NCBI GenBank assembly: GCA_965220065.1
Contig: OZ244804.1
Coordinates: 1,344,915-1,408,914, forward strand
DNA length: 64,000 nt
Direction: 5' to 3'
From: Candidatus Poribacteria bacterium
GTDB taxonomy: Bacteria > Poribacteria > WGA-4E > WGA-3G
Below the pieces are notes generated by a model that worked only from the letters and a program-made list of their open reading frames with translations, did no database searches and was not told where the DNA came from. Shown piece by piece: positions 45,234 to 64,000 of this stretch; position 1 is the stretch's first letter; every line of letters starts with the position of its first letter. A program made the position numbers and the translations under genes.

Positions 45234-45262
45234 TTGACAACGGATGGAAATTAGAGTATACT
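45234..45262 (+). promoter_or_regulatory. Sigma-70 promoter of tRNA-Leu
   Basis: TTGACA (45234-45239), then a 17-nt spacer, then TATACT (45257-45262). The tRNA 5' end is 10 nt downstream. Confidence 0.55.
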
Positions 45263-45272
45263 ATAATTGCTT

Positions 45273-45358
45273 GCCGGGATGCTGAAATTTGGTAGACAGG
45301 CTAGGTTCAGGATCTAGTGTGCATTATGCGCGTAAGGGTTCGAGTCCCTTTCCCGGCA
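45273..45358 (+). tRNA. tRNA-Leu, anticodon CAG
   Basis: Acceptor stem GCCGGGA/TCCCGGC plus A73. D-loop 'AATTTGGTAGA'. Anticodon stem CTAGG/TCTAG with loop TTCAGGA. Long variable arm (class II tRNA). T-arm GGGTTCGAGTCCC. Confidence 0.8.
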
Positions 45359-52209: not shown

Positions 52210-52289
52210 TTTTTAAACGATTAGCCTCCATGTTTTTTAAGTTATCAAATCTGGTTACCGTCGCTCCAGATTTCGGTGCTTTTCTCTTA

Positions 52290-52510
52290 AGAGTGAATGA
52301 TGGTAGCCTGCAACAACGGCGCAGGCGGTCAGTACCAAAAAATCGTTGTTGAACCAAACCAGTCATTTTACGCCTTGCGAATTATTGTGATTGCAGCATT
52401 CACGAAAAATGTATGATGGTAGCCTGCAACAACGGCGCAGGCGGTCAGTACGAAAAAACCGTTGTTAGACCAACCCCTTCATTCTACGCTTTGCGAATTA
52501 TTAAAAAAAT
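52290..52510. repeat. Tandem duplication (2 units of ~116 bp) of REP-like family 1 element, each containing the hairpin GCCTGCAACAACGGCGCAGGC
   Basis: Unit 1 is about 52290-52405 and unit 2 about 52406-52510. Hairpins at 52306-52326 and 52422-52442. Shared tail '...cattttacgccttgcgaattatt'. Confidence 0.55.
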
Positions 52511-53412: not shown

Positions 53413-54492
53413 TTATGCGTACTGTTCTAATACGTTTCGGTTGATATCAATACCTAATCCGGGTGCCTGGGGAACGTCAACGTATCCATCAACGGCATTT
53501 ATCGGTTGCTGTGCCAACGCCGTACGGAGACGGTTCTCGGTCATATCGAATTCCAACAGCGAAGGGATCGGGTTGAGTGCTTGGGGTGCATCTGGAAGTG
53601 TAGCTTGCCAGTGCAGCGTCGCCGCGAGGCGGATACTACCGCCCCACATGTGGGGCAATACCCGAACATAGTTCGCACTCGCCATAGCCGCGATTTTTCG
53701 GCACTCCGTAAAACCGCCTGCAATGCTCAGATCGGGTTGCACAATATCCAATCCCCGTTCCTGTAGCAGGTCTCGGAACGCCCAACGTCCCTTCAGCATC
53801 TCGCCACCAGCAATTCTCACCTTCAGTGCGTGTCGAATCTCCCGATAGCCTGTCACATCGTCACTCGTAATCGGTTCCTCATACCAGAAGAGGTCGGAGT
53901 CCAGAAGTTTCTGTCCGACATCAATCGCAGTCCCGACATCGTAGCCACAATTGGCGTCGACAGCGAAGAGGGTATCGTCCCCAATGGCGCGTCGAACCGC
54001 GGCAACGTTCTTCACATCGTAAGCCTCACCGAAACCGACTTTCATCTTGACAGCGGGGAATCCTGCATCGACGTAGCCTTTCGCTTCGTCCATCAACGCT
54101 TGAGTTATGTCGGGTTTGTCTTTCTTGAAGAGTCCACTGGCGTAAGCCGGGATTTTTGATCGAAACGCGCCACCGAGGAGTTGATAGATCGGCATATCAA
54201 GTGCCTTGCCCATGATGTCCCAGAGTGCGATGTCTATCCCGCTCAGCGCGCCGATATCACCGCGCATCGCCTCCCAAATCCGTTCCGTTTCAAAAGGCGA
54301 TTGTCCGATCAGGTGTGCTTCAACTGCTGAGGGGGACGGAACGCTCACACCTTCACCCCAGCCGGTAATGCCAGCATCTGTGCGAATTTCGACAACGATG
54401 GCGGTTCGCGCGTTCGTCCAACCGCGTGAGTTCGCGAAGGGTTCAATGAGTGGATAGCGTAAGTTGTATGTTTTAACGTCGGTGATTTTCAT
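53413..54492 (-). CDS. Enolase-superfamily enzyme (MR/MLE family)
   Basis: 'MKITDVKTYNLRYPLIEPFANSRGWTNARTAIVVEIRTDAGITGWGEG'. Confidence 0.8.
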   Translation of the reverse strand: MKITDVKTYNLRYPLIEPFANSRGWTNARTAIVVEIRTDAGITGWGEGVSVPSPSAVEAHLIGQSPFETERIWEAMRGDIGALSGIDIALWDIMGKALDMPIYQLLGGAFRSKIPAYASGLFKKDKPDITQALMDEAKGYVDAGFPAVKMKVGFGEAYDVKNVAAVRRAIGDDTLFAVDANCGYDVGTAIDVGQKLLDSDLFWYEEPITSDDVTGYREIRHALKVRIAGGEMLKGRWAFRDLLQERGLDIVQPDLSIAGGFTECRKIAAMASANYVRVLPHMWGGSIRLAATLHWQATLPDAPQALNPIPSLLEFDMTENRLRTALAQQPINAVDGYVDVPQAPGLGIDINRNVLEQYA

Positions 54493-54660
54493 AACGTCGG
54501 TATTTGCGATGTGGTTCTAAAGCGTCCTTTGTGTCGTGTTGGTACCTACAATGTCCTTCTATTTTACCACATTTTCACATTTTTTGCAGAAAAAATGGAA
54601 ATAGGATCAGGGTCATTCAGTTTTAAGAAATTATTGGATTTTACGCCTATTTTTCAGGAT

Positions 54661-54690
54661 CCGGTGCGGTTAGAAACCGCACCTACCGGG
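54661..54690. repeat. REP-like hairpin, family 2, copy 3 (perfect stem GGTGCGGTT/AACCGCACC)
   Basis: 'ccggtgcggttagaaaccgcacctaccggg'. Confidence 0.5.
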
Positions 54691-54895
54691 ATGGTTGCTC
54701 AAAATCTTTCTAAAAAACGGAAAACTAAATAGCCCTAAAATAGGATAGCAATCAGAGGTCAGCAGTCAGCCCCAAAGAGGCAACAGGGGCATAATCCAAA
54801 TGGACGGAGTCGGCGTTGGAAACCTCTCCCACAGCGGAAGATTTGTAATTCTGGGAAAGTCGCGATCGGGAGATCGCTCCTACAGAAGAGGGTTA

Positions 54896-55660
54896 TCAGC
54901 GGCCGGCAGTCAGTTTTAGGTTGCCCCATGTTGTTGTGAGTTTGCCGCTAGGTGTTATGGCAAATCCACCACTGTTCGGAATGCTATCGCCAGTGACAGT
55001 TATGTTATCAAAGCGTGCCGTGTAATTCGCAAGACCGAAACCTACACCCCCTGTCAAGAAGTCGGGAAATTCATCAAAATTAAATTCCTCATGTTGAACC
55101 CCCCTGAGGACCAGAAGTTCCGTGGGTTCCATCACTTGCTTTTCATCGATCCAGAAGGTAACGATGTTATCCTGAACGCCTAACTTTAGATGTGCCCACT
55201 TATTCAACCTTAAAAGCGGGTGAGGTTCAGCATGAAGGCGTACAAATATTACATCGTGAAAATTGCCATAGTTGCAATATACCCCTTCCTCAGGGATGCC
55301 CTCACCATCAACCAGTACTACCGTATCAGCAATGCGGCAGGAAACTACCCACGTCCCGTTCACGCGCGCGGCAATCGCGATAGCCCCGATACCGTGTTTT
55401 TTGAGCGGCTTGACATCAAATTCTATAGTATAATCCTCCCACGTTTTATCACCTGTTGTGAGTAAACGCATAGCCGGATCAGGACTTACGGCGTGGAGTT
55501 CATCATTGACAATCTCCCAAGAACCGGGTGCTTCCTTCAACTGGACAAGCTCCCGCCATCCGTCCAATTTCTTGCCATCAAAGGTTTCCAGAAATGTGCC
55601 TGACCAGCCGGAAAAGGGCAAGAGAAAAAGAACAGTGACAATACACATGAATTTCATCAT
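54896..55660 (-). CDS. Secreted DUF1080 (3-keto-disaccharide hydrolase-like) protein
   Basis: Signal peptide. 'GTFLETFDGKKLDGWRE...WEIVNDELH'. C-terminal '...TTWGNLKL'. Confidence 0.7.
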   Translation of the reverse strand: MMKFMCIVTVLFLLPFSGWSGTFLETFDGKKLDGWRELVQLKEAPGSWEIVNDELHAVSPDPAMRLLTTGDKTWEDYTIEFDVKPLKKHGIGAIAIAARVNGTWVVSCRIADTVVLVDGEGIPEEGVYCNYGNFHDVIFVRLHAEPHPLLRLNKWAHLKLGVQDNIVTFWIDEKQVMEPTELLVLRGVQHEEFNFDEFPDFLTGGVGFGLANYTARFDNITVTGDSIPNSGGFAITPSGKLTTTWGNLKLTAGR

Positions 55661-55717
55661 AAGTCTCCTTTAATTTGTGATTAGAAAGTAAATTTTGAGT
55701 GTCGGAAACCACAACTA

Positions 55718-58618
55718 CTATAGTTTTTCGAGGGGGATGTGAAACATCTTGCCATGCCGAGTAGCAATATAAAGTTTATCGTTGCTGACAACAAGAGAAC
55801 CGACCTCATCTGGAACACTTGGGGAAATCTGATGCCATCTCTGACGGTCATTCAAACGATAGACCCCTGTATCACCAGCACCATAAACGTTGGTATGATC
55901 GACAGCGAGTCTATCGATGACGAGACGTTCACCCATTTCATCGGTGAGCACACGCCAGTGTTCGCCGTTCTGTGAAGCCAAGACGCCTTCGTCCGTTGCG
56001 ACATAAACCGTTGATCCCACAAAGACTATCTCTTTGAAATCGATAAAATGGAGCGGAAGGATCGGTGTGAGGTCTTTCCAACTGTTTCCTTCATCAAGTG
56101 ATTGAAACAGTTTACCATTCCGTTTACCGACGTAGACGGTTTCTCCTGAAACTGCTAACTTAAAGCCTTTATCGGATCTGTCATTAAGCGATCCACTGGT
56201 ATCTATTAACCCGGTATCTGTCCATTCCGAGTCGCCGGGTTTCCACCTGAAGAGCCGGTGCTTCCATTCGGCGTAGAACGTCTGTCCACTGACTGCGAAC
56301 CCGCCAATTCGGCTATAGTCTGTAACTAAGGACGCTACTACTTCTGGAAAGTCCTCGTTTCCTTCACTATTACCTGACAGAAGTCCCTGTGTGAGTGCTT
56401 CTGTCCATGCCACCAACTCAGTAGACGAGAGTTCCCGTTCAAAAGTGGGCGCCCTTTGAACCGGGACAAATGTGTTGTCACCTACAGATAATTGAAAAAG
56501 GCGTAGGTTGTCTTTTCCAGGAGCAATTCCATAAAGAGCGTCTCCAGCAGTTTCTAACTGTGAAGCGAGAGAGAAATGAAGCGGAGAAAACTCTTCTTCT
56601 ATCCCTTCACGCTTCTGTTTAGGTGTCTCAATTCCAACGGTTTCCCACACCTCACCCCCGTCAACTGACTGGACGATTCCTCTATCGGTACGTGCATAAA
56701 GTCTATTGTTGACCGTAACGAGATCCTGTATTGTCGTTTCCGTTATCCCATTCGTAAATGGGTGCCATGATTTGCCGCCATCGGTTGTGCGATGAACACC
56801 AAATGAACCGCCCTTGTAAAAAGTGTTCTTGTTTGTCGTTACGACTCCTTGTGGTAAAAACGTTTCGCCGGTGTGCACCAGAGTTACCGCACCAAGTGCT
56901 GTACTCCTAAAGGGGGATTCATTTCCGTGCGTTATTTCAGTCCACGATGCTCCTAAGTCGGTTGAGTGGAAAACCCTCTCTAAATTTGGGCTGTCCGTGA
57001 TGTGTATCTGTACTGTAATATTTTCAATATTTTCGCTTGATTCGAGAAACTTCCATCTTGATGGCTCAGGTCCCGTTACAACATAGAGATTATTTTCAAA
57101 AACGGTTAGAGACAGGATGGCGTGTTGGGACGGATGAACCGATAATCGCTCCCAGATATCTGAATTGAGGCGATAGAGTCCCTTGTTTGTACCAGCAAAT
57201 ATTGTGTTTCCAACCGCGGCTACTGCGTAAACAGTTTCGTCTGTGAGTCCATTTTCCAAAAGATTCCACTGGGCACCAGCATCTGTGGATCGGAAAACAC
57301 CTTTGGTTTGAAGGCCGAGATACATTACAGGACGTGGTTGTGAGTTATATTTATCTGTTTCATTCATGACGATAAGTCCAACGGCATGTCCCTCTGGTCG
57401 GGAGCAAAGGACCTTCCACGTTTCACCATTATTCGTTGAAGCGAATATTTTGTCGGTGGAAACAATATAGAGGGTGTCGGCATGTTCTGCCATTGGCATC
57501 CGGAACCGTCCGCTTGGTATACTCGTATTGATGCGCGTCCATGTGGTTGCGTCCGATGCGAGTCTATAGATACCCGTCGGTGCAGCAGCGTAAAGGACAC
57601 TTTCAGACGTAACGAAAAGATCCAGGACGGTACCTCCGTAGGGTCCATTTGTTTGTGTCCATTGTGAAGTGGAGAACTTAGCGGAATCCTCCTGTGTATT
57701 GGGTGCTAAAACCGTCTCGGTGATTTGTTGACCGATCCCTCTGCTTTCACTCGGAATAGCGGCATGCCCGACCTGACGCCGCACAGCAGGCTTTGAATCA
57801 ACATTAAGCACAATAGGGGCATCAACGATTTCAATTGTGGGTTCAGATTGTGCCTCAAAACTGTAGGGCTTCTGAAAACGGGTAATGTATTGATTGCTTG
57901 CACCCAGCAGCAACAAAACCACGATGACAGTCGCGCCAAAAGCCGTCCACGGGAGCAGGGGTTTCCCAACAGGAGGCGGTGTCGGTTTCAGGTCAGCGAC
58001 CTGCTGCATGATGTTCTCAGTTAGGCTGGTGGGTAATTGGACACCGCCGAGTACATCGCTCACCAAAAGTTCCTCTTTCTCTTGCAAACGCTTTCGTGCC
58101 CGATGCAGTCGACTGTGAATCGTCTTCACAGACACACCCAAGAATTTACCGATTTCCTTCGCGTTCATTTCGCCGAGGTAGTAAAGCGTCACGACCGTGC
58201 GTTCGCTCTCCGGCAGTCTGGCGAGAAGTTTTTTGACGATTTCACTGCGGCGTTCAGAGGTTTCTGTCTCGCGCTGCTCCGATACATAACGGATATAGGA
58301 GAATTTCTCTATTTCTTCCGTAGATGTCCCATCCAGCGATTGCATCGTGGGTTTCTTCTTCCGGATCCAATTCAGGCAAAGTCTATTTGCGATGACATAG
58401 AGCCACCCCGCAAACTGGTTCAGATCCTTGAGTGTTGAGAGTTTTTTGTATGCCTGAAGGAAGGTATCTTGTGTGATTTCTTCAGCGTGATGAAAGTCAC
58501 CAATCTTCCGCCACGCAAGGGCATGGACACTTTTTCTGTATTTCTGAACCAAGGTGCTAAACGCGGTGTCGTCGCCTGACAAAACACTGCGAATCAGTTG
58601 AACATCATCTCTTTCCAT
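55718..58618 (-). CDS. ECF sigma-70 factor fused in one polypeptide to a TM helix and a ~720-aa extracytoplasmic BNR/Asp-box beta-propeller domain
   Basis: Sigma region 2, 'HHAEEITQDTFLQAYKK'. Region 4 HTH, 'AKEIGKFLGVSVKTIHSRLHRARKRL'. TM 'LLPWTAFGATVIVVLLLLGA'. Six or more S-x-D-x-G-x-x-W boxes (STNNGETW, STDAGAQW, STDLGASW, TTDGGKSW, SVDGGEVW, SLDEGNSW). Confidence 0.75.
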   Translation of the reverse strand: MERDDVQLIRSVLSGDDTAFSTLVQKYRKSVHALAWRKIGDFHHAEEITQDTFLQAYKKLSTLKDLNQFAGWLYVIANRLCLNWIRKKKPTMQSLDGTSTEEIEKFSYIRYVSEQRETETSERRSEIVKKLLARLPESERTVVTLYYLGEMNAKEIGKFLGVSVKTIHSRLHRARKRLQEKEELLVSDVLGGVQLPTSLTENIMQQVADLKPTPPPVGKPLLPWTAFGATVIVVLLLLGASNQYITRFQKPYSFEAQSEPTIEIVDAPIVLNVDSKPAVRRQVGHAAIPSESRGIGQQITETVLAPNTQEDSAKFSTSQWTQTNGPYGGTVLDLFVTSESVLYAAAPTGIYRLASDATTWTRINTSIPSGRFRMPMAEHADTLYIVSTDKIFASTNNGETWKVLCSRPEGHAVGLIVMNETDKYNSQPRPVMYLGLQTKGVFRSTDAGAQWNLLENGLTDETVYAVAAVGNTIFAGTNKGLYRLNSDIWERLSVHPSQHAILSLTVFENNLYVVTGPEPSRWKFLESSENIENITVQIHITDSPNLERVFHSTDLGASWTEITHGNESPFRSTALGAVTLVHTGETFLPQGVVTTNKNTFYKGGSFGVHRTTDGGKSWHPFTNGITETTIQDLVTVNNRLYARTDRGIVQSVDGGEVWETVGIETPKQKREGIEEEFSPLHFSLASQLETAGDALYGIAPGKDNLRLFQLSVGDNTFVPVQRAPTFERELSSTELVAWTEALTQGLLSGNSEGNEDFPEVVASLVTDYSRIGGFAVSGQTFYAEWKHRLFRWKPGDSEWTDTGLIDTSGSLNDRSDKGFKLAVSGETVYVGKRNGKLFQSLDEGNSWKDLTPILPLHFIDFKEIVFVGSTVYVATDEGVLASQNGEHWRVLTDEMGERLVIDRLAVDHTNVYGAGDTGVYRLNDRQRWHQISPSVPDEVGSLVVSNDKLYIATRHGKMFHIPLEKL

Positions 58619-58647
58619 CAGGATTCTCCATAATTAACGTTTTCGGT

Positions 58648-60072
58648 TCAAATATCCAACCTAAAGAATTTCAGAAACGCCACGGTTGTTAACGCTGCCG
58701 CAAAGAAGCAGAGCAGCAAAACATCCACTATAGACCGGCGCAACGTTTCACCTAAGGAAGTTACGACCAAATTCGGCGGTGGCGCGATTTTTTCCTCACT
58801 TGACTCAGATGGATTCATGCGAACTGCTATTTGCATTATCTGTGCAAAGGGATCATCTGAGATATGAGAGAAATAATCTGTATTGAGTTGTGCATAGTAG
58901 GATTCACCGGTTTGGAAGTAGGTATTCCTTTTGAGTTTTCCTGTCTGCGTTAAGTTCATGACGAGAAAGGTTAAGGAAGACGTGGGTGTGATTCGGGAAA
59001 GCGTCTCGCCCACGGATTCTTGCCTCAATTTTTCACGTTGATAGGCTCTATCAATCTTGTTCGCTTGATCCTCAAATTTCAGCCGATATTCCTTCTCAAT
59101 AGGTTCGCGGAGTTCTTGTAAAGTATCCTCGCCATCTGTTCTTATCTCAAGGCGGCCTCCTGTGGCATCCATAATTTTTTTTGTGATCTTCTCATCCTTC
59201 TCTGCATTGAGATTGTTGCGGACTGCTGTCTTTTCCATATAGACACTCTGTACTGTTCGAGTGGGTGCGATGAGTTTCGCGGTAACAAAACCAGCCCGTG
59301 GTGCAATCAACACAGCAAATACCCAGAGCGTAAAAGCGACGATGAGTGCCGTTTTGGAATCGTCCAGATAGGTGGAGATCACCGTTCCTATCGCAAAAAA
59401 CACCGCAATATAGAGCATTGAAGCTCCTGTTAGGCTGAGTACCCGTGGAAAAACGTCGGGCTCACCCAATGGGAACCCTTGCCAGACAAGCACGAGTAAA
59501 CCGAACAGGAATGAGACTAAGAACGGGATGACGAAGACGATGTATCCGCCGATCAACTTACTCCATAGAAAAAGATCGCGCGGTAACGCATTTGCTAAGG
59601 TAATTCGCAGTGTCCCGGCTTCTCTTTCCCCTGCAACGGCGTCAAACGTAAACAGGAGGGCGAGCAAACTGAAAACGGTGCTGACGACAAACAGAAAGTC
59701 AAGATGTCCTAAAGCATAAGAAAGTGGTGCTTCCGCCAATGTTGTTGAACCCCGTCTGACACCATTACGGGTCATTCCAAGATAGGTAGGGAGTGCTTCC
59801 TCTAACCCGTTCGCGAAGACGCTCAACGGCGTGGGGTTGAGATATAGTTTGGAAACCTCCTTATCTGGATCCTGGGCATTTGGCGGATCCTCTTTCGCTT
59901 TAGCATTTGCGCGTTTAACTGCCTCCTGATAGTCTACCTGATTCTGACGATAGTGTCGATAATTGATAGAAAGCGTGAGCGGTATGAGCAGGACACACAT
60001 CAAAAGGAGCGCGACGAACCGGACGCTCAAAATGTGATGCATCATTTCTTTCTGAATTAAGGTCATTAACAT
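58648..60072 (-). CDS. Permease-like polytopic membrane protein (ABC-2-permease-like N-terminus, coiled-coil region, C-terminal TM), paralog A
   Basis: Start set at MLMTLIQKEMMHH by homology with paralog B. GGAGA RBS. The conserved upstream 110 bp is shared with 63840-63940. Confidence 0.5.
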   Translation of the reverse strand: MLMTLIQKEMMHHILSVRFVALLLMCVLLIPLTLSINYRHYRQNQVDYQEAVKRANAKAKEDPPNAQDPDKEVSKLYLNPTPLSVFANGLEEALPTYLGMTRNGVRRGSTTLAEAPLSYALGHLDFLFVVSTVFSLLALLFTFDAVAGEREAGTLRITLANALPRDLFLWSKLIGGYIVFVIPFLVSFLFGLLVLVWQGFPLGEPDVFPRVLSLTGASMLYIAVFFAIGTVISTYLDDSKTALIVAFTLWVFAVLIAPRAGFVTAKLIAPTRTVQSVYMEKTAVRNNLNAEKDEKITKKIMDATGGRLEIRTDGEDTLQELREPIEKEYRLKFEDQANKIDRAYQREKLRQESVGETLSRITPTSSLTFLVMNLTQTGKLKRNTYFQTGESYYAQLNTDYFSHISDDPFAQIMQIAVRMNPSESSEEKIAPPPNLVVTSLGETLRRSIVDVLLLCFFAAALTTVAFLKFFRLDI

Positions 60073-60415
60073 TAAGGTGTCTCCGTTTCCAAATCGGGAT
60101 ATGATACGCTTCAACTAATAAAGACACAATTTTAGAGGAAAAACTTGCATAATCTGAAAAAATCAGAGGAATTAAGATTTTAAGGTAAATGGGACTTATA
60201 CGATGGTTTAAAATTGTCTGATACACTGATATTATGAAAACATTAACCCTTTCTGAAAAGAGACAACTGCTATTAGTGGATTATAGCCAATTTCTATTAG
60301 CAAGTTTCCATAACTTCACGCACATCTACTCTGCAACACATACCCGGGATGGAATCATAATCAACTTAATCGGTTTCTGCGACTAGAACACCTTCTCGTC
60401 TGCGAATTCTAATAC

Positions 60416-61171
60416 CTAAAACTTCTTCAACTGTCCCCAAATCATTGCAAGTTTCGATTGAGGTAATACCGATAACCCACCCTTATTTGGAATATTGTTA
60501 CCAATGATGGTGATATTGTCGAATCTTGCCGTGTAATTAGCGAGACCGAAACCGGCACCGCCTGCTGGGTGGTTCGCGATGTTTCCTACCTTTAACATGA
60601 GTTCTTTACCGTCATGTAGGAAGATAAAGGGATCTCCTGTTTCCATAATTTTTCTTCCATTTATCGAAAAAATGAAATGATCTCCTCTAACGCTCAACTT
60701 GAGTTTAGACCATTTATTTGATTTTAAAAGCCGGTGAGGTTTTATTGACAGTGCTTCACCTATGTTTCCAGCAAAATCACGACTGCTACACATCGCTTTT
60801 GATTCAGGGTCGTTTAAGAAGAGATCAGAAATCGTACACCAAACTGTCCGGCTTCTTTCAACCCGTGCGACAATACTGATATTTCCGGGACCGCGTTTTT
60901 CAAGAGGCTTGACGTTAACCTCAATACTATAATCTTGCCATGTTTCATCACCTGTCGTAAAAAAGCGGGCGCCTCCTCCAGGGTTTGTCATCTCGAGTTC
61001 ACCATCAACAATTTCCCATGAACCGGGTGCAGCATCATGCGCGTTAAGTTCCCTCCAATCTTTTAAAGCATCCTCATCAAAAGTTTCCACGAATGTACCT
61101 GCCCAAACAGAGGAGGTGAGGAGAAGTATACCTAATCCAATGCTTAACACTTTCATAATGTTACCTTTCAT
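60416..61171 (-). CDS. Secreted DUF1080 protein
   Basis: Paralog of 54896-55660: 'GTFVETFDEDALKDWRE...WEIVDGELE', with C-terminal '...MIWGQLKKF'. Confidence 0.7.
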   Translation of the reverse strand: MKGNIMKVLSIGLGILLLTSSVWAGTFVETFDEDALKDWRELNAHDAAPGSWEIVDGELEMTNPGGGARFFTTGDETWQDYSIEVNVKPLEKRGPGNISIVARVERSRTVWCTISDLFLNDPESKAMCSSRDFAGNIGEALSIKPHRLLKSNKWSKLKLSVRGDHFIFSINGRKIMETGDPFIFLHDGKELMLKVGNIANHPAGGAGFGLANYTARFDNITIIGNNIPNKGGLSVLPQSKLAMIWGQLKKF

Positions 61172-61468
61172 AGGACTTACACAATATTGATAGAAATAGC
61201 AGGTTTATGAAGTTGTTGTCGTATGTAATGATCGAGTAAACTTTCTTTGAGTTGATAAATCGTTTGACCGACGGTACGGGCGACACGCGTCAAACTCACC
61301 ACCGCTCCGTTGGCTGCGAACGAGTTGAATCGCTTTAGCATACGGTTTTGCCACGACGGTATCGTTAAAAAGGAGGTATCCCTGGGGATGAAAGTCTATG
61401 TCATTTTCCACCGAGCACCAGTGGTGTCTAAGACTCCCTATAATCTGCGAAATCTGCGATTCAGACAC

Positions 61469-62293
61469 CTAAAACGCCTTCCGTTTAATATTGCCCCATG
61501 TCGTAGCGACCTTATCTTTCGGCGAAACCGAGAGCAAGGGACCCCGCATTGTCTTCCTGACTTCATCTTCACTGAGCGCACGATTCCATATCGCGACTTC
61601 ATCGATGGAACCGTCTTCAAAGGCGGACTGTGGCTTATTCTTCACACAACCAATCCGCAAATCCTCTTCATTGACGCCCTTGAAATTAATGTTAGCTTTG
61701 TCTATAGGTTGGATTATAATCTCTCCGTCAAGATACATCTTCACACCTCTACGCTCACAGACCCCCACAATGTGATGCCACTTTTTATCCTCCATTGTAT
61801 TATCAACCATATGGAGTTGCTGGACTTCACCGGTCCCTAATACAATTCCAATACCGGAGTCCCTCTTAAACAATCCAGCACCACCAAGTTCCTTCTCATC
61901 AAAGACTGCCATACCGTATACACTATGGGGGTCCCCGCCACGAGTCCCTTTATCAAACCACTGCGAAGAACGTCCCTTCCAATTCTCGTGATACACCCAT
62001 GCCATCATCGTGATTTCCTCAGTGATTTCTAATTTATGGGAGGCTGGCACATTCACACAATCTTCAGTTTCGCCAGTGATACGGATCGCATTCCCGTATT
62101 TACCCTCGACAAATTTAGCATTTTTGATCACTTCAGCATCCAGACCGTTCCCGGATTCATCAAGGATCTGCTTGCCATTAACGTTGTCAAACGTGAAGTA
62201 AACAACAAGCCCTTCAGTGAGATCTGCTGTAGTATATCTTGCTGTGATAAATATCAAAACAAATAATAAAAGTTGGAGAAATACATGTCTCAT
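61469..62293 (-). CDS. Secreted LamG/DUF1080-like jellyroll protein
   Basis: Start ATG 62293 with a perfect GGAGG RBS. Signal peptide. 'GNGLDAEVIKNAKFVEGKYGNAIRI' LamG-like. C-terminal '...TTWGNIKRKAF'. Confidence 0.6.
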   Translation of the reverse strand: MRHVFLQLLLFVLIFITARYTTADLTEGLVVYFTFDNVNGKQILDESGNGLDAEVIKNAKFVEGKYGNAIRITGETEDCVNVPASHKLEITEEITMMAWVYHENWKGRSSQWFDKGTRGGDPHSVYGMAVFDEKELGGAGLFKRDSGIGIVLGTGEVQQLHMVDNTMEDKKWHHIVGVCERRGVKMYLDGEIIIQPIDKANINFKGVNEEDLRIGCVKNKPQSAFEDGSIDEVAIWNRALSEDEVRKTMRGPLLSVSPKDKVATTWGNIKRKAF

Positions 62294-62408
62294 TTTTGTC
62301 CTCCTATTGGATTTTCCAAACAAAAAGCCTCAATAAACCGAAGTAGAATAAAATAGAGTTTGAAGGCAATTAAATTCCCTCATAATTCCAAACTCTGACG
62401 TTTTCCGC

Positions 62409-63839
62409 TCAAATATCTGTGCGGAAGAATTTCAGAAATGCCACGGTTGTTAGCGCAATTGCGAAGAAACAGAGTAGTATCGCGTCCACAACCGATCGAC
62501 GGAATGTCTCTCCTAAGGGCGTTATCTCTAAAGGGGAGGGTTGTGTGATTTTGACACCCGCATGGTGATGTCCCTTATAGGTATGGTCTGAAATTTTGCT
62601 GAACACCTCCGTGTCAAGTCTATCCCAGTAGCGATTTCCTGCTTGCAAGTAGTTGCTTCTTTTTCCCTTTCCGGTTTGTGTCAAGTTCGTCGCGAGATAG
62701 ATTAAAGAAGATGTGGGTGTCATTCGGGAGAGCGTCTCACCGATTTGCTCTTGTCGTTCTGTTTCACGTTTGTAATCGCGGTCGAGTTTATCAGAGTGGT
62801 TTTGGAATTTTAAGCGATATTCCTCTTCAAGCGGTGCCATGTGCGCATCGATTTTTTCCGCGTTTTTTCCACCCGGCATGATGAACGTGATCCTGCGTCC
62901 CATCTCATCCGTTATCTCGTCCCATTCGAGCTGAGACATTATTTTCTTTTTTTCCTTTTCGAGGGTTGTATTGAAATCTTCTCGCATCGCTGTTTTCTCC
63001 ATATAGACGCTCTGCGGCGTTCGTGTCGGGGCAATGAGTTTGGCTGCCAGAAACCCAACGCGTGGTGTAATCAGTACGGCAAACACCCAAACAGTAAAGG
63101 CAACGATGAGTGCCGTCTTGGCACTATCGAGGTAGATGGAAATCACCGTCCCTATCGCGAAAAACACGGCGATATAAAGTAAGGAGACGAGGGTTAAACT
63201 GAGTACTCGTGGAAAAATGTCGGACTCACCGAGCGGAAACCCTTGCCAAACGATTAAGAGTAAACCGAAGATAAACGACACCAAGAAGGGAACAACAAAC
63301 ACAAGGTATCCGCCGATCAACTTGCTCCATAGGAATACGTCGCGCGGGAGGGCGTTCGCTAAAGTAATCCGCAACGTCCCTGCTTCTCTTTCCCCGGCAA
63401 CGGCATCGAACGTAAACAGCAACGCAAGCAGACTAAAAACTGTCCCGACCACAAAGAGAAAATCGAGATGCCCCAGCAGATAGGAAAGTGGTGAGGCAAT
63501 TAAAGCATCGGGTCCCTGTGTAATCCCATTGCGTGTTATACCCAGATAACTCGGGAGCACGTTTTCGAGTCCGTTTGCGAAAACGCTCAAAGGTGTCGGT
63601 TTGAGAAAGAGTTTGGAAACTTCCTGTTCCGGTTTAGGGGGTGAGTTCGGATTCACTTCCGCCTCTTCAAGGTTTGCCCGTTTAATGGCTTCTTGATAGT
63701 CCACTAAATTTTGGCGATAATTGCCGTAATTGATATGCAAGGTAAGCGGAACAAGCAACAGACACATCAAAAGGAGCGCGACGAACCGGACGCTGAGAAT
63801 ATGATGCATCATTTCTTTCTGAATTAAGGTCATTAACAT
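62409..63839 (-). CDS. Permease-like membrane protein, paralog B (about 70% aa identity to paralog A)
   Basis: The N-terminus, TM core and C-terminal TM align with 58648-60072. Confidence 0.5.
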   Translation of the reverse strand: MLMTLIQKEMMHHILSVRFVALLLMCLLLVPLTLHINYGNYRQNLVDYQEAIKRANLEEAEVNPNSPPKPEQEVSKLFLKPTPLSVFANGLENVLPSYLGITRNGITQGPDALIASPLSYLLGHLDFLFVVGTVFSLLALLFTFDAVAGEREAGTLRITLANALPRDVFLWSKLIGGYLVFVVPFLVSFIFGLLLIVWQGFPLGESDIFPRVLSLTLVSLLYIAVFFAIGTVISIYLDSAKTALIVAFTVWVFAVLITPRVGFLAAKLIAPTRTPQSVYMEKTAMREDFNTTLEKEKKKIMSQLEWDEITDEMGRRITFIMPGGKNAEKIDAHMAPLEEEYRLKFQNHSDKLDRDYKRETERQEQIGETLSRMTPTSSLIYLATNLTQTGKGKRSNYLQAGNRYWDRLDTEVFSKISDHTYKGHHHAGVKITQPSPLEITPLGETFRRSVVDAILLCFFAIALTTVAFLKFFRTDI

Positions 63840-63930
63840 TAAGGTGTCTCCACTTCCAAATCGGGATATGATACGCTTCAGTTAATAAAGACACAATTTT
63901 GAGGGCAAAACTTGCATAATCTGAAAAATA

Positions 63931-64000
63931 TCAAATATCTGTGTGGAAGAATTTCAGAAATGCCACGGTTGTTAGCGCAATTGCGAAGAAACAGAGCAGT
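63931..64000 (-). CDS. Permease-like membrane protein, paralog C (3' end only; truncated by the window edge)
   Basis: 63941-64000 is about 95% identical to 62411-62470. It encodes '...LLCFFAIALTTVAFLKFFHTDI*'. Confidence 0.4.
   Translation of the reverse strand, partial: LLCFFAIALTTVAFLKFFHTDI

Follow-up and report, generated by a model that had tools for sequence, protein, structure and literature searches.

Several described systems come close to the locus reported here, an array of permease genes in Candidatus Poribacteria. The array occupies one end of a 64,000-nucleotide stretch of DNA (GenBank assembly GCA_965220065.1, contig OZ244804.1, positions 1,344,915 to 1,408,914; "the window" below is this whole stretch). 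It comprises three paralogous genes, C1, C2 and C3, for ABC-2-type permeases (ABC, ATP-binding cassette), interleaved with genes for secreted proteins and followed by a gene that fuses an extracytoplasmic function (ECF) sigma factor to a transmembrane (TM) helix and a beta-propeller. For the permeases the nearest described system is NosDFY, in which the periplasmic loops of NosY dock the periplasmic partner NosD. NosY (PDB 7o0y, 7qba) is a six-TM ABC-2 subunit of the PF12679 type that works with a separate ATPase, and a profile match relates it to our permeases across TM2-TM5, including a GE.E.GTL cytoplasmic loop; it differs in having 276 residues and no insertion between TM5 and TM6, and the window array has no nosD, nosF, nosL or nosZ neighbours.

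A second comparison concerns the ATPase. In the group II energy-coupling-factor vitamin importers, and with the multitask ATPases MsiK and MsmK, one locus energises many substrate-specific membrane subunits, and ATPase sharing is established for some importers, whereas we know of no description of it for ABC-2 exporters. The likeness to our array lies in one energising module serving many scattered subunits; the difference is that those systems are importers with unrelated membrane folds, and that in Poribacteria the sharing is what we would propose from the distribution of the genes.

The third comparison is regulatory. YxlF and YxlG of Bacillus subtilis form an ABC-2-type transporter, and sigY-yxlCDEFG (group ECF31), like ECF257 and ECF258, places an ECF sigma factor in one unit with ABC-transporter genes. 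SigY has been mentioned together with YxlC and YxlD, and ECF257 and ECF258 are described as ABC-transporter-associated (PMC7826278, PMC8999054). They differ from the window array in having an ATPase of their own and an anti-sigma factor that is a separate protein; the window array has no ATPase at the locus but several permeases, and its sigma factor continues into a TM helix and a propeller. The fusion itself resembles the membrane-extended ECF proteins IutY (ECF243), SCO4117 (ECF52), those with WD40-like extensions in ECF57, and ECF01-Gob: in it a sigma factor is joined to a TM segment and a large extracytoplasmic domain, the "one-component" layout, which in IutY is activated by regulated proteolysis (PMC8999054, PMC4937300); it departs from them in having no recognisable ZAS or FecR domain, the sensor being a BNR/sortilin-like propeller.

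Taken singly, each component is of a known kind: the protein family, ECF sigma factors with fused domains, and ECF factors linked to ABC transporters (PMC7826278, PMC8999054). What seems undescribed is their combination: an arrayed ABC-2 subunit, one distant ATPase, an ECF-type promoter for each paralog, and systematic linkage to sigma/TM/propeller fusions. A full-text literature search found no paper treating poribacterial ECF sigma factors or ABC-2 transporters. The explanation we favour, with moderate confidence, is that C1 to C3 are ECF-regulated alternative membrane subunits that use one ATPase encoded elsewhere in the genome.

Old paralogs of a NosY-like ABC-2 subfamily

The initial annotation of the window could name no family for these proteins, and described them as an ABC-2-like core with a C-terminal coiled-coil and TM extension. 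We think that both statements have to be given up. PF12679 (ABC2_membrane_2; curated cut-off 27.2 bits) matches C1 and C2 with 112 and 106 bits (E-values 4e-32 and 3e-30), and relatives bear the NCBI name "ABC transporter permease". Since residues 3-475 of C2 align to positions 1-282 of the 283 in the profile, the C-terminal TM segment is TM6 of the ABC-2 core itself, and the charged, coiled-coil-like region is inserted between TM5 and TM6 and does not extend the C-terminus. Six TM segments are placed in C1 both by hydropathy and by the helices of a structure model of low confidence (about residues 17-36, 121-143, 169-197, 211-233, 241-268 and 446-470). The C1-C3 subfamily has a loop of about 85 residues between TM1 and TM2 and a helical insertion of about 175 residues between TM5 and TM6 (about 271-445 in C1, with a helical hairpin at 274-361 in the model), both of which would be periplasmic. 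In the cytoplasmic TM2-TM3 loop, E149, E151, G153 and T154 are near-invariant in a wide family alignment, and the same loop aligns in NosY, which is the best sequence match in the PDB (E-value 0.002 with C1 alone, 5e-16 with a family profile) and the sole significant solved relative. Foldseek against the PDB also returns NosY as its top three matches, with poor E-values from a poor input model, and we give this little weight.

The permeases belong to a subfamily that is expanded in Poribacteria. Relatives matching end to end (455-520 amino acids) fall into 366 clusters at 50% identity and E-values of 1e-30 or below, one Latescibacterota protein among them, and a profile search for more diverse members returned mostly the same poribacterial clade again. 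Some distant relatives carry the JGI label "multi-copper enzyme maturation permease subunit", which is a family-level label and no evidence of that function. Three more specific assignments were rejected. GldF (TIGR03518) scores 20.6 and 16.5 bits against an equivalog cut-off of 288.5. DUF3526 (PF12040) scores 18.6 and 16.0 bits over residues 330-412, below its gathering cut-off of 25; a precomputed DUF3526 match is present on some relatives, and the insertion is probably a distant relation of that domain. Orthology with NosY was set aside as well, there being no nos genes among the Pfam-scanned neighbours, and the proteins having 474 residues with an insertion of about 175 as against about 270 residues without one.

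The array is laid out as follows, all of its genes lying on the minus strand. The complete C3 was taken from locus L001, part of a 5.39-Mb ENA contig that contains the exact C2 protein; L001 differs from the window at 4 positions over 11,592 nucleotides, and therefore represents the same genome.

L001 8467-9909: paralog C3, complete gene, 480 amino acids
L001 8169-8195: promoter element of C3, outside the window
63931-64000, minus: 3' end of C3, last 23 codons and stop, the remainder lying past the window edge
63840-63932, minus: conserved block upstream of C2, from the C3 stop codon, with promoter-like element and GGAGAC ribosome-binding site
63890-63916, minus: two-part ECF-type promoter-like element of C2, TGCAAG-N16-GTGTC, alternatively TGCAAG-N17-TGTCTT
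62409-63839, minus: paralog C2, ABC-2 (PF12679) permease, 476 amino acids
61469-62323, minus: secreted LamG / concanavalin-A-like lectin protein (PF13385) with a signal-like hydrophobic N-terminal segment; the ENA gene call puts its start at 62293
60416-61171, minus: secreted DUF1080 / 3-keto-disaccharide-hydrolase-like protein (PF06439)
60073-60165, minus: conserved block upstream of C1, with promoter-like element, predicted 5' untranslated region of about 55 nucleotides and ribosome-binding site
60123-60149, minus: two-part ECF-type promoter-like element of C1, TGCAAG-N16-GTGTC
60080-60084, minus: GGAGA ribosome-binding site of C1
58648-60072, minus: paralog C1, ABC-2 (PF12679) permease, 474 amino acids from the ATG at 60072
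55718-58618, minus: ECF sigma/TM/beta-propeller fusion, 966 amino acids, beginning 29 nucleotides past the C1 stop
54896-55660, minus: second secreted DUF1080 protein (PF06439), beginning 57 nucleotides past the stop of the sigma fusion

Two details of the initial annotation change with this layout. The third copy does not begin at 63931, these positions being the 3' end of its gene; and the interleaving with DUF1080 genes holds for one gene between the copies, the other being the LamG gene. Further upstream of C3, L001 encodes another sigma/propeller fusion, a PD40/Tricorn-like protein, a trypsin-TPR protein and a third sigma/propeller fusion.

The identification of three ABC-2-like paralogs is confirmed by the PF12679 matches and by pairwise identities of 62 to 70%. 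C1 and C2 are 70.2% identical as proteins, as had been estimated (about 70%), and C3 is 62-64% identical to either. At conserved codons, however, third positions are just 41-44% identical, so that synonymous sites are saturated and the duplications must be old. An assembly artefact or collapsed repeat, a concern raised with the initial annotation, is hardly conceivable: copies as diverged as these, saturated at synonymous sites, do not collapse, at least eight independent assemblies, several at chromosome level, have the same gene order (the orthologous loci L002 and L004-L009 among them), and the ENA contig reproduces the window almost exactly. The sequences accordingly identify C1 to C3 as old, diverged paralogs of an ABC-2 subfamily (type V exporter fold, PF12679, NosY-like).

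Divergence is not uniform along the genes. Over their last 70 nucleotides (63931-64000 in C3), C2 and C3 agree at 97%, a stretch with the appearance of local gene conversion. Around the start codon and in the first 96 coding nucleotides, identity between C1 and C2 is 85-97%, and synonymous sites share in it. Such patches indicate that gene conversion acts in the array. In L005 (8161-9765) the ortholog of one array member is broken into two open reading frames and has probably become a pseudogene, a hint that genes of the array turn over.

A two-part element upstream of the permeases

The region before C1 and C2 is conserved well beyond what the age of the copies would lead one to expect. From -93 to +98 a 192-nucleotide alignment of the two is 90% identical, 60073-60165 pairing with 63840-63932, which is far more than at neutral sites, given third-codon identities of only 41-44%; a 37-nucleotide core is present exactly twice in the window (0.00 expected). 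Before C3 the distal 60 nucleotides of this region, a block with the promoter-like element, stand about 300 nucleotides 5' of the ATG, outside the window, and near the start codon only the GGAGAC ribosome-binding site is common. The claim that some 110 base pairs before each start codon are near-identical therefore stands for C1 and C2 (about 93 nucleotides, about 90%) and fails for C3, while the broader point, that each copy has its own conserved expression signal, is borne out for all three. With blastn the block was also found before orthologous permeases in L002-L009, at 77 to about 300 nucleotides from the ATG, and the element stands before all permeases of the orthologous array in L001-L008, as it does before two of three in L009.

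Among 17 distinct copies of the element, TGCAAGTTTT and AAAATTGTGTCTT are invariant and the six bases between them vary. Invariant half-sites around a variable middle are the signature of a two-part binding site and not of a gene-conversion tract. The initial annotation had read a TTGTGT-17-TATCAT promoter here; its proposed -10 hexamer varies among 18 copies of the element, being TATCAT, AATCAT, TATCGT, GATCGT or AATTGT, and the invariant parts fit an ECF-type promoter instead. The form TGCAAG-N16-GTGTC matches twice in the 64-kb window (0.07 expected). When the pattern is generalised to TGCAA[CG]-N16-18-[CT]GTC, it turns up 130 times in the survey, which took in 75 poribacterial loci, each about 21 kb long, and where 29 occurrences would be expected; 115 are on the gene strand, and 40 lie just 5' of ECF sigma genes, typically 60-75 nucleotides before the start codon. 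The format TGCAAC-N18-CGTC is found upstream of about 40 neighbouring ECF sigma genes, and two short sigma genes in the arrays of other genomes share a near-identical ATGCAAC(A/T)TTTT..TCAAA.TT.TGTCA. Validated sigma-E sites of Streptomyces coelicolor, such as TGCAAC-N17-CGTCTG, have the same layout (PMC6767563).

We must nevertheless consider a simpler explanation, namely that the array members are redundant ABC-2 duplicates read from a sigma-70 promoter, TTGTGT-17-TATCAT, that their upstream identity is due to gene conversion, and that there is no special ECF link. The homogenised patches described above speak for this, and so do the hexamers, which are indeed present and overlap the element; a generic promoter scan of the region was, moreover, no richer than shuffled sequence (18 matches against 12.9 +/- 3.6). 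It is also true that the bases differ from the usual ECF ones, with GCAAG instead of AAC at -35 and TGTC instead of CGTC at -10. Conversion, however, does not readily account for the C3-type copies, which keep just the 60-nucleotide block while the sequence from block to ATG is unrelated and of different length, nor for half-sites that never change when the six bases in the middle and the proposed -10 do; and the recurrence of the same format before some 40 ECF sigma genes would be left unexplained. The one clear housekeeping promoter of the window, that of a tRNA gene (45273-45358, plus strand; region 45234-45358), is a canonical TTGACA-N17-TATACT and served as a control, from which we take it that the element is not of the housekeeping type. 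We therefore regard the sigma-70 explanation as unlikely.

The ECF assignment thus fits in layout, in spacing of 16-18 nucleotides and in position 5' of the unit formed by C1 and the sigma fusion, but not in the exact -35 and -10 bases, and we propose that the element is an ECF-sigma-dependent promoter. A search of 54000-64000 against Rfam (E-value up to 1) gave no match, and we can set aside a known riboswitch or leader as the source of the conserved 5' region. Other paralog groups have different upstream regions, many with TGCAAC-TTTT-type motifs of their own, and the element is not family-wide.

A probable partner ATPase encoded at a distance

Neither the 64-kb window nor the 10 kb upstream of it (74 kb in all) yielded an ABC ATPase, whether by motif scan or by phmmer with the family ATPase, in agreement with the earlier remark that no cognate ATPase is nearby. 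The structure and profile comparison proposed with that annotation thus has a divided outcome: the family is a well-known one (PF12679, NosY-like), and its partner ATPase is not encoded nearby. The choice of method matters here, for a regular expression of Walker A plus LSGGQ misses the family ATPase, whose signature is FSKGMRQR, while phmmer with the nucleotide-binding domain finds it.

The partner does appear in relatives. Across the 75 loci we counted 202 full-length permease paralogs, the largest arrays reaching ten or more, together with 20 small stand-alone ABC ATPase open reading frames; 19 of these closely match the family ATPase (244 amino acids, PF00005), 18 of them near full length (230-270 amino acids). 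The ATPase gene comes immediately behind a permease or closes an array of them, and is followed by genes for a protein of about 785 amino acids with NEW3/NPCBM_assoc domains and then, according to Pfam, a TolC-like OEP protein, which may be the periplasmic and outer-membrane parts of the exporter. L052 (3944-7887) and L029 (12507-16399) illustrate this order, with a NEW3/CARDB Ig-like protein of about 785 and a TolC-like protein of about 465 amino acids after the ATPase. An in-operon cognate ATPase was found for other paralogs of the subfamily in 19 loci, and also in one operon outside the Poribacteria: two non-poribacterial metagenome contigs (L077, 4434-15845, and L078) have a compact operon of OEP, NEW3, a 94-amino-acid open reading frame, permease, ATPase and four more permeases. 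This indicates that the gene set is a real system, in which several permeases per ATPase are normal. That operon is flanked by TonB-dependent receptor genes, its gene set being the one seen in Poribacteria, kept together.

The 18 ATPases are 88-100% identical to one another (median 93%), whereas the permeases adjacent upstream are 22-96% identical (median 64%); one ATPase ortholog therefore stands beside different paralogs in different genomes. At 90% identity the ATPase cluster has 718 sequences. The initial annotation had suggested looking for an orphan ATPase elsewhere in the genome, and the nearest complete relative has one: OZ242349.1, with a C1 of 97% identity, has the array at 2.98-3.00 Mb and the 244-amino-acid ATPase at 4.73 Mb, about 1.7 Mb away. 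Conservation within the permeases is consistent with a common partner. Among 121 poribacterial paralogs the most conserved parts are the N-terminal helix and the TM2-TM3 loop (GEREAGTL), at 0.84-0.97, the TM core being conserved as well, and the most variable are residues 51-70, 111-120, 291-335 and 411-440, all within the two long loops. Many subunits that fit one ATPase and differ outside would be expected to show such a pattern.

Alternatively, the array members could be ATPase-independent partners of the membrane-tethered sigma factors, acting as scaffold, anti-sigma-like retainer or sensor. The ATPase-free 74 kb would then need no further explanation, an ATPase is found within 400 nucleotides of just 10 of the 202 permeases, the spacing to the sigma fusions is tight (gaps of 7-76 nucleotides in orthologous loci), and Pfam and TIGR profile scans of those fusions gave no recognisable anti-sigma domain (ZAS or FecR). 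Yet C1 to C3 retain the N-terminal helix and E149, E151, G153 and T154, where conservation in the protein is highest, as continued docking of an ATPase predicts; most island permeases adjoin other permeases and not sigma genes; and permease divergence does not track that of the adjacent sigma fusion (r = 0.15 over 32 adjacent pairs, a comparison that in itself tells little). We think this alternative quite unlikely.

There are nonetheless limits to the certainty that sharing of a distant ATPase can be given. The exact ATPase of the 97%-identical relative is absent from the contig of the window and was found only on that relative's own, so that the presence of the ATPase in the window's genome would follow from its relatives; and the structure model, built from 95 close homologs, has a mean pLDDT of 56 and a pTM of 0.45, which is low confidence. 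Together with the conversion patches, the unusual promoter bases and the overlapping sigma-70-like hexamers, these points weigh against our explanation.

Some permease/sigma islands have, in addition, pairs of fused ABC half-transporters nearby (about 613 amino acids, each with membrane and ATPase domains):

L021 61-3759: half-transporter pair
L035 16757-20440: half-transporter pair
L037 11598-15299: half-transporter pair
L045, L046 and L062: half-transporter pairs

Sigma fusions and a possible regulatory circuit

The fusion that follows C1 has sigma-2 and sigma-4 regions in residues 1-185, one TM helix, and a propeller of about 720 residues. Residues 23-180 match PF04542 and PF08281/PF04545, TIGR02937 scores 107 bits against a cut-off of 42.9, and a hydrophobic segment at about 216-240 precedes matches to BNR, sortilin and DUF6242 propellers. 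No terminator was found in the 29 nucleotides between the C1 stop and the fusion, and the two are probably co-transcribed, with the second DUF1080 gene (54896-55660) probably the last of the unit. Such linkage recurs in the survey, where 64 ECF-sigma/TM/propeller fusions and 38 other ECF sigma genes make 102, and 47 permease flanks have a same-strand sigma gene within 400 nucleotides, in either order and often with gaps below 100 nucleotides. The sigma domains of the fusions and of shorter array sigma proteins (350-450 amino acids) form one family, at least 50% identical to that of the window fusion, to which stand-alone ECF sigma factors of 205-217 amino acids are about 29% identical.

From these elements we would draw the following circuit. 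There would be three transcription units, one of C3 from its own promoter, one of C2, possibly running on into the LamG and DUF1080 genes, and one of C1, the sigma fusion and the second DUF1080 gene. The last would be autoregulatory, and C2 and C3 would belong to the same regulon. The propeller of the membrane-tethered sigma factor would sense an envelope or host-derived cue, upon which the sigma domain would be released, by regulated proteolysis if it behaves like fused ECF proteins such as IutY (PMC8999054), and would transcribe its own unit and the permease genes bearing the same element. The permeases would not act solo, and would dock on the single conserved 244-amino-acid ATPase while offering different periplasmic surfaces; new permeases on a constitutively conserved ATPase could then alter the cargo of the presumed exporter or its periplasmic partner. 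That the substrate may be related to glycans is suggested by the company of secreted DUF1080 and LamG lectin-like proteins and by the BNR-type propeller.

One could also imagine a single signalling machine made up of a permease and its sigma/TM/propeller fusion and driven by the shared ATPase, in which the variable insertion engages the propeller or a secreted DUF1080 or LamG protein, and substrate flux or ATP-driven movement controls release of the sigma domain. Such a machine would be a mechanotransducer of the NosDFY kind, or a flux sensor like Bce, whose output is an ECF sigma factor in place of a kinase, and each genome would have many copies of it. We consider this very unlikely.

If, on the other hand, C1 to C3 are alternative subunits under ECF control, Poribacteria would have a modular exporter in which one ATPase, and probably one outer-membrane channel, serves many interchangeable subunits, each switched on by its own envelope-sensing ECF sigma factor. 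This would also provide a large natural set of matched promoter/sigma pairs in an uncultivated phylum of sponge symbionts, and would mean that envelope and glycan sensing (BNR propellers, DUF1080, LamG) is a major regulatory investment of these symbionts.

Some minor observations may be added. Permease islands of other Poribacteria also contain tandem arrays of membrane-anchored coiled-coil proteins of 190-350 amino acids and a secreted thioredoxin-like protein of 520 amino acids, which had no Pfam-style match in the screens run, each of their genes being preceded by a TGCAAC-TTTT-type motif:

L056 684-4177: island of this kind
L036 11606-13168 and 14733-16555: island of this kind

Hairpins centred on GGTTTCnAACC, for example GGTGCGGTTTCTAACCGCACC, recur at many loci, among them 54666-54680 of the window (minus strand) and about 7975-8000 of L001. 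They are placed 3' of sigma-fusion or DUF1080 genes and 5' of permease genes; some have a T-run and are terminator-like, and others, without one, resemble dispersed palindromic repeats. Finally, two intergenic 98-nucleotide direct repeats (52289-52386 and 52405-52502) are 88% identical, with 116 nucleotides from start to start, and each contains a GCCTGC...GCAGGC hairpin.

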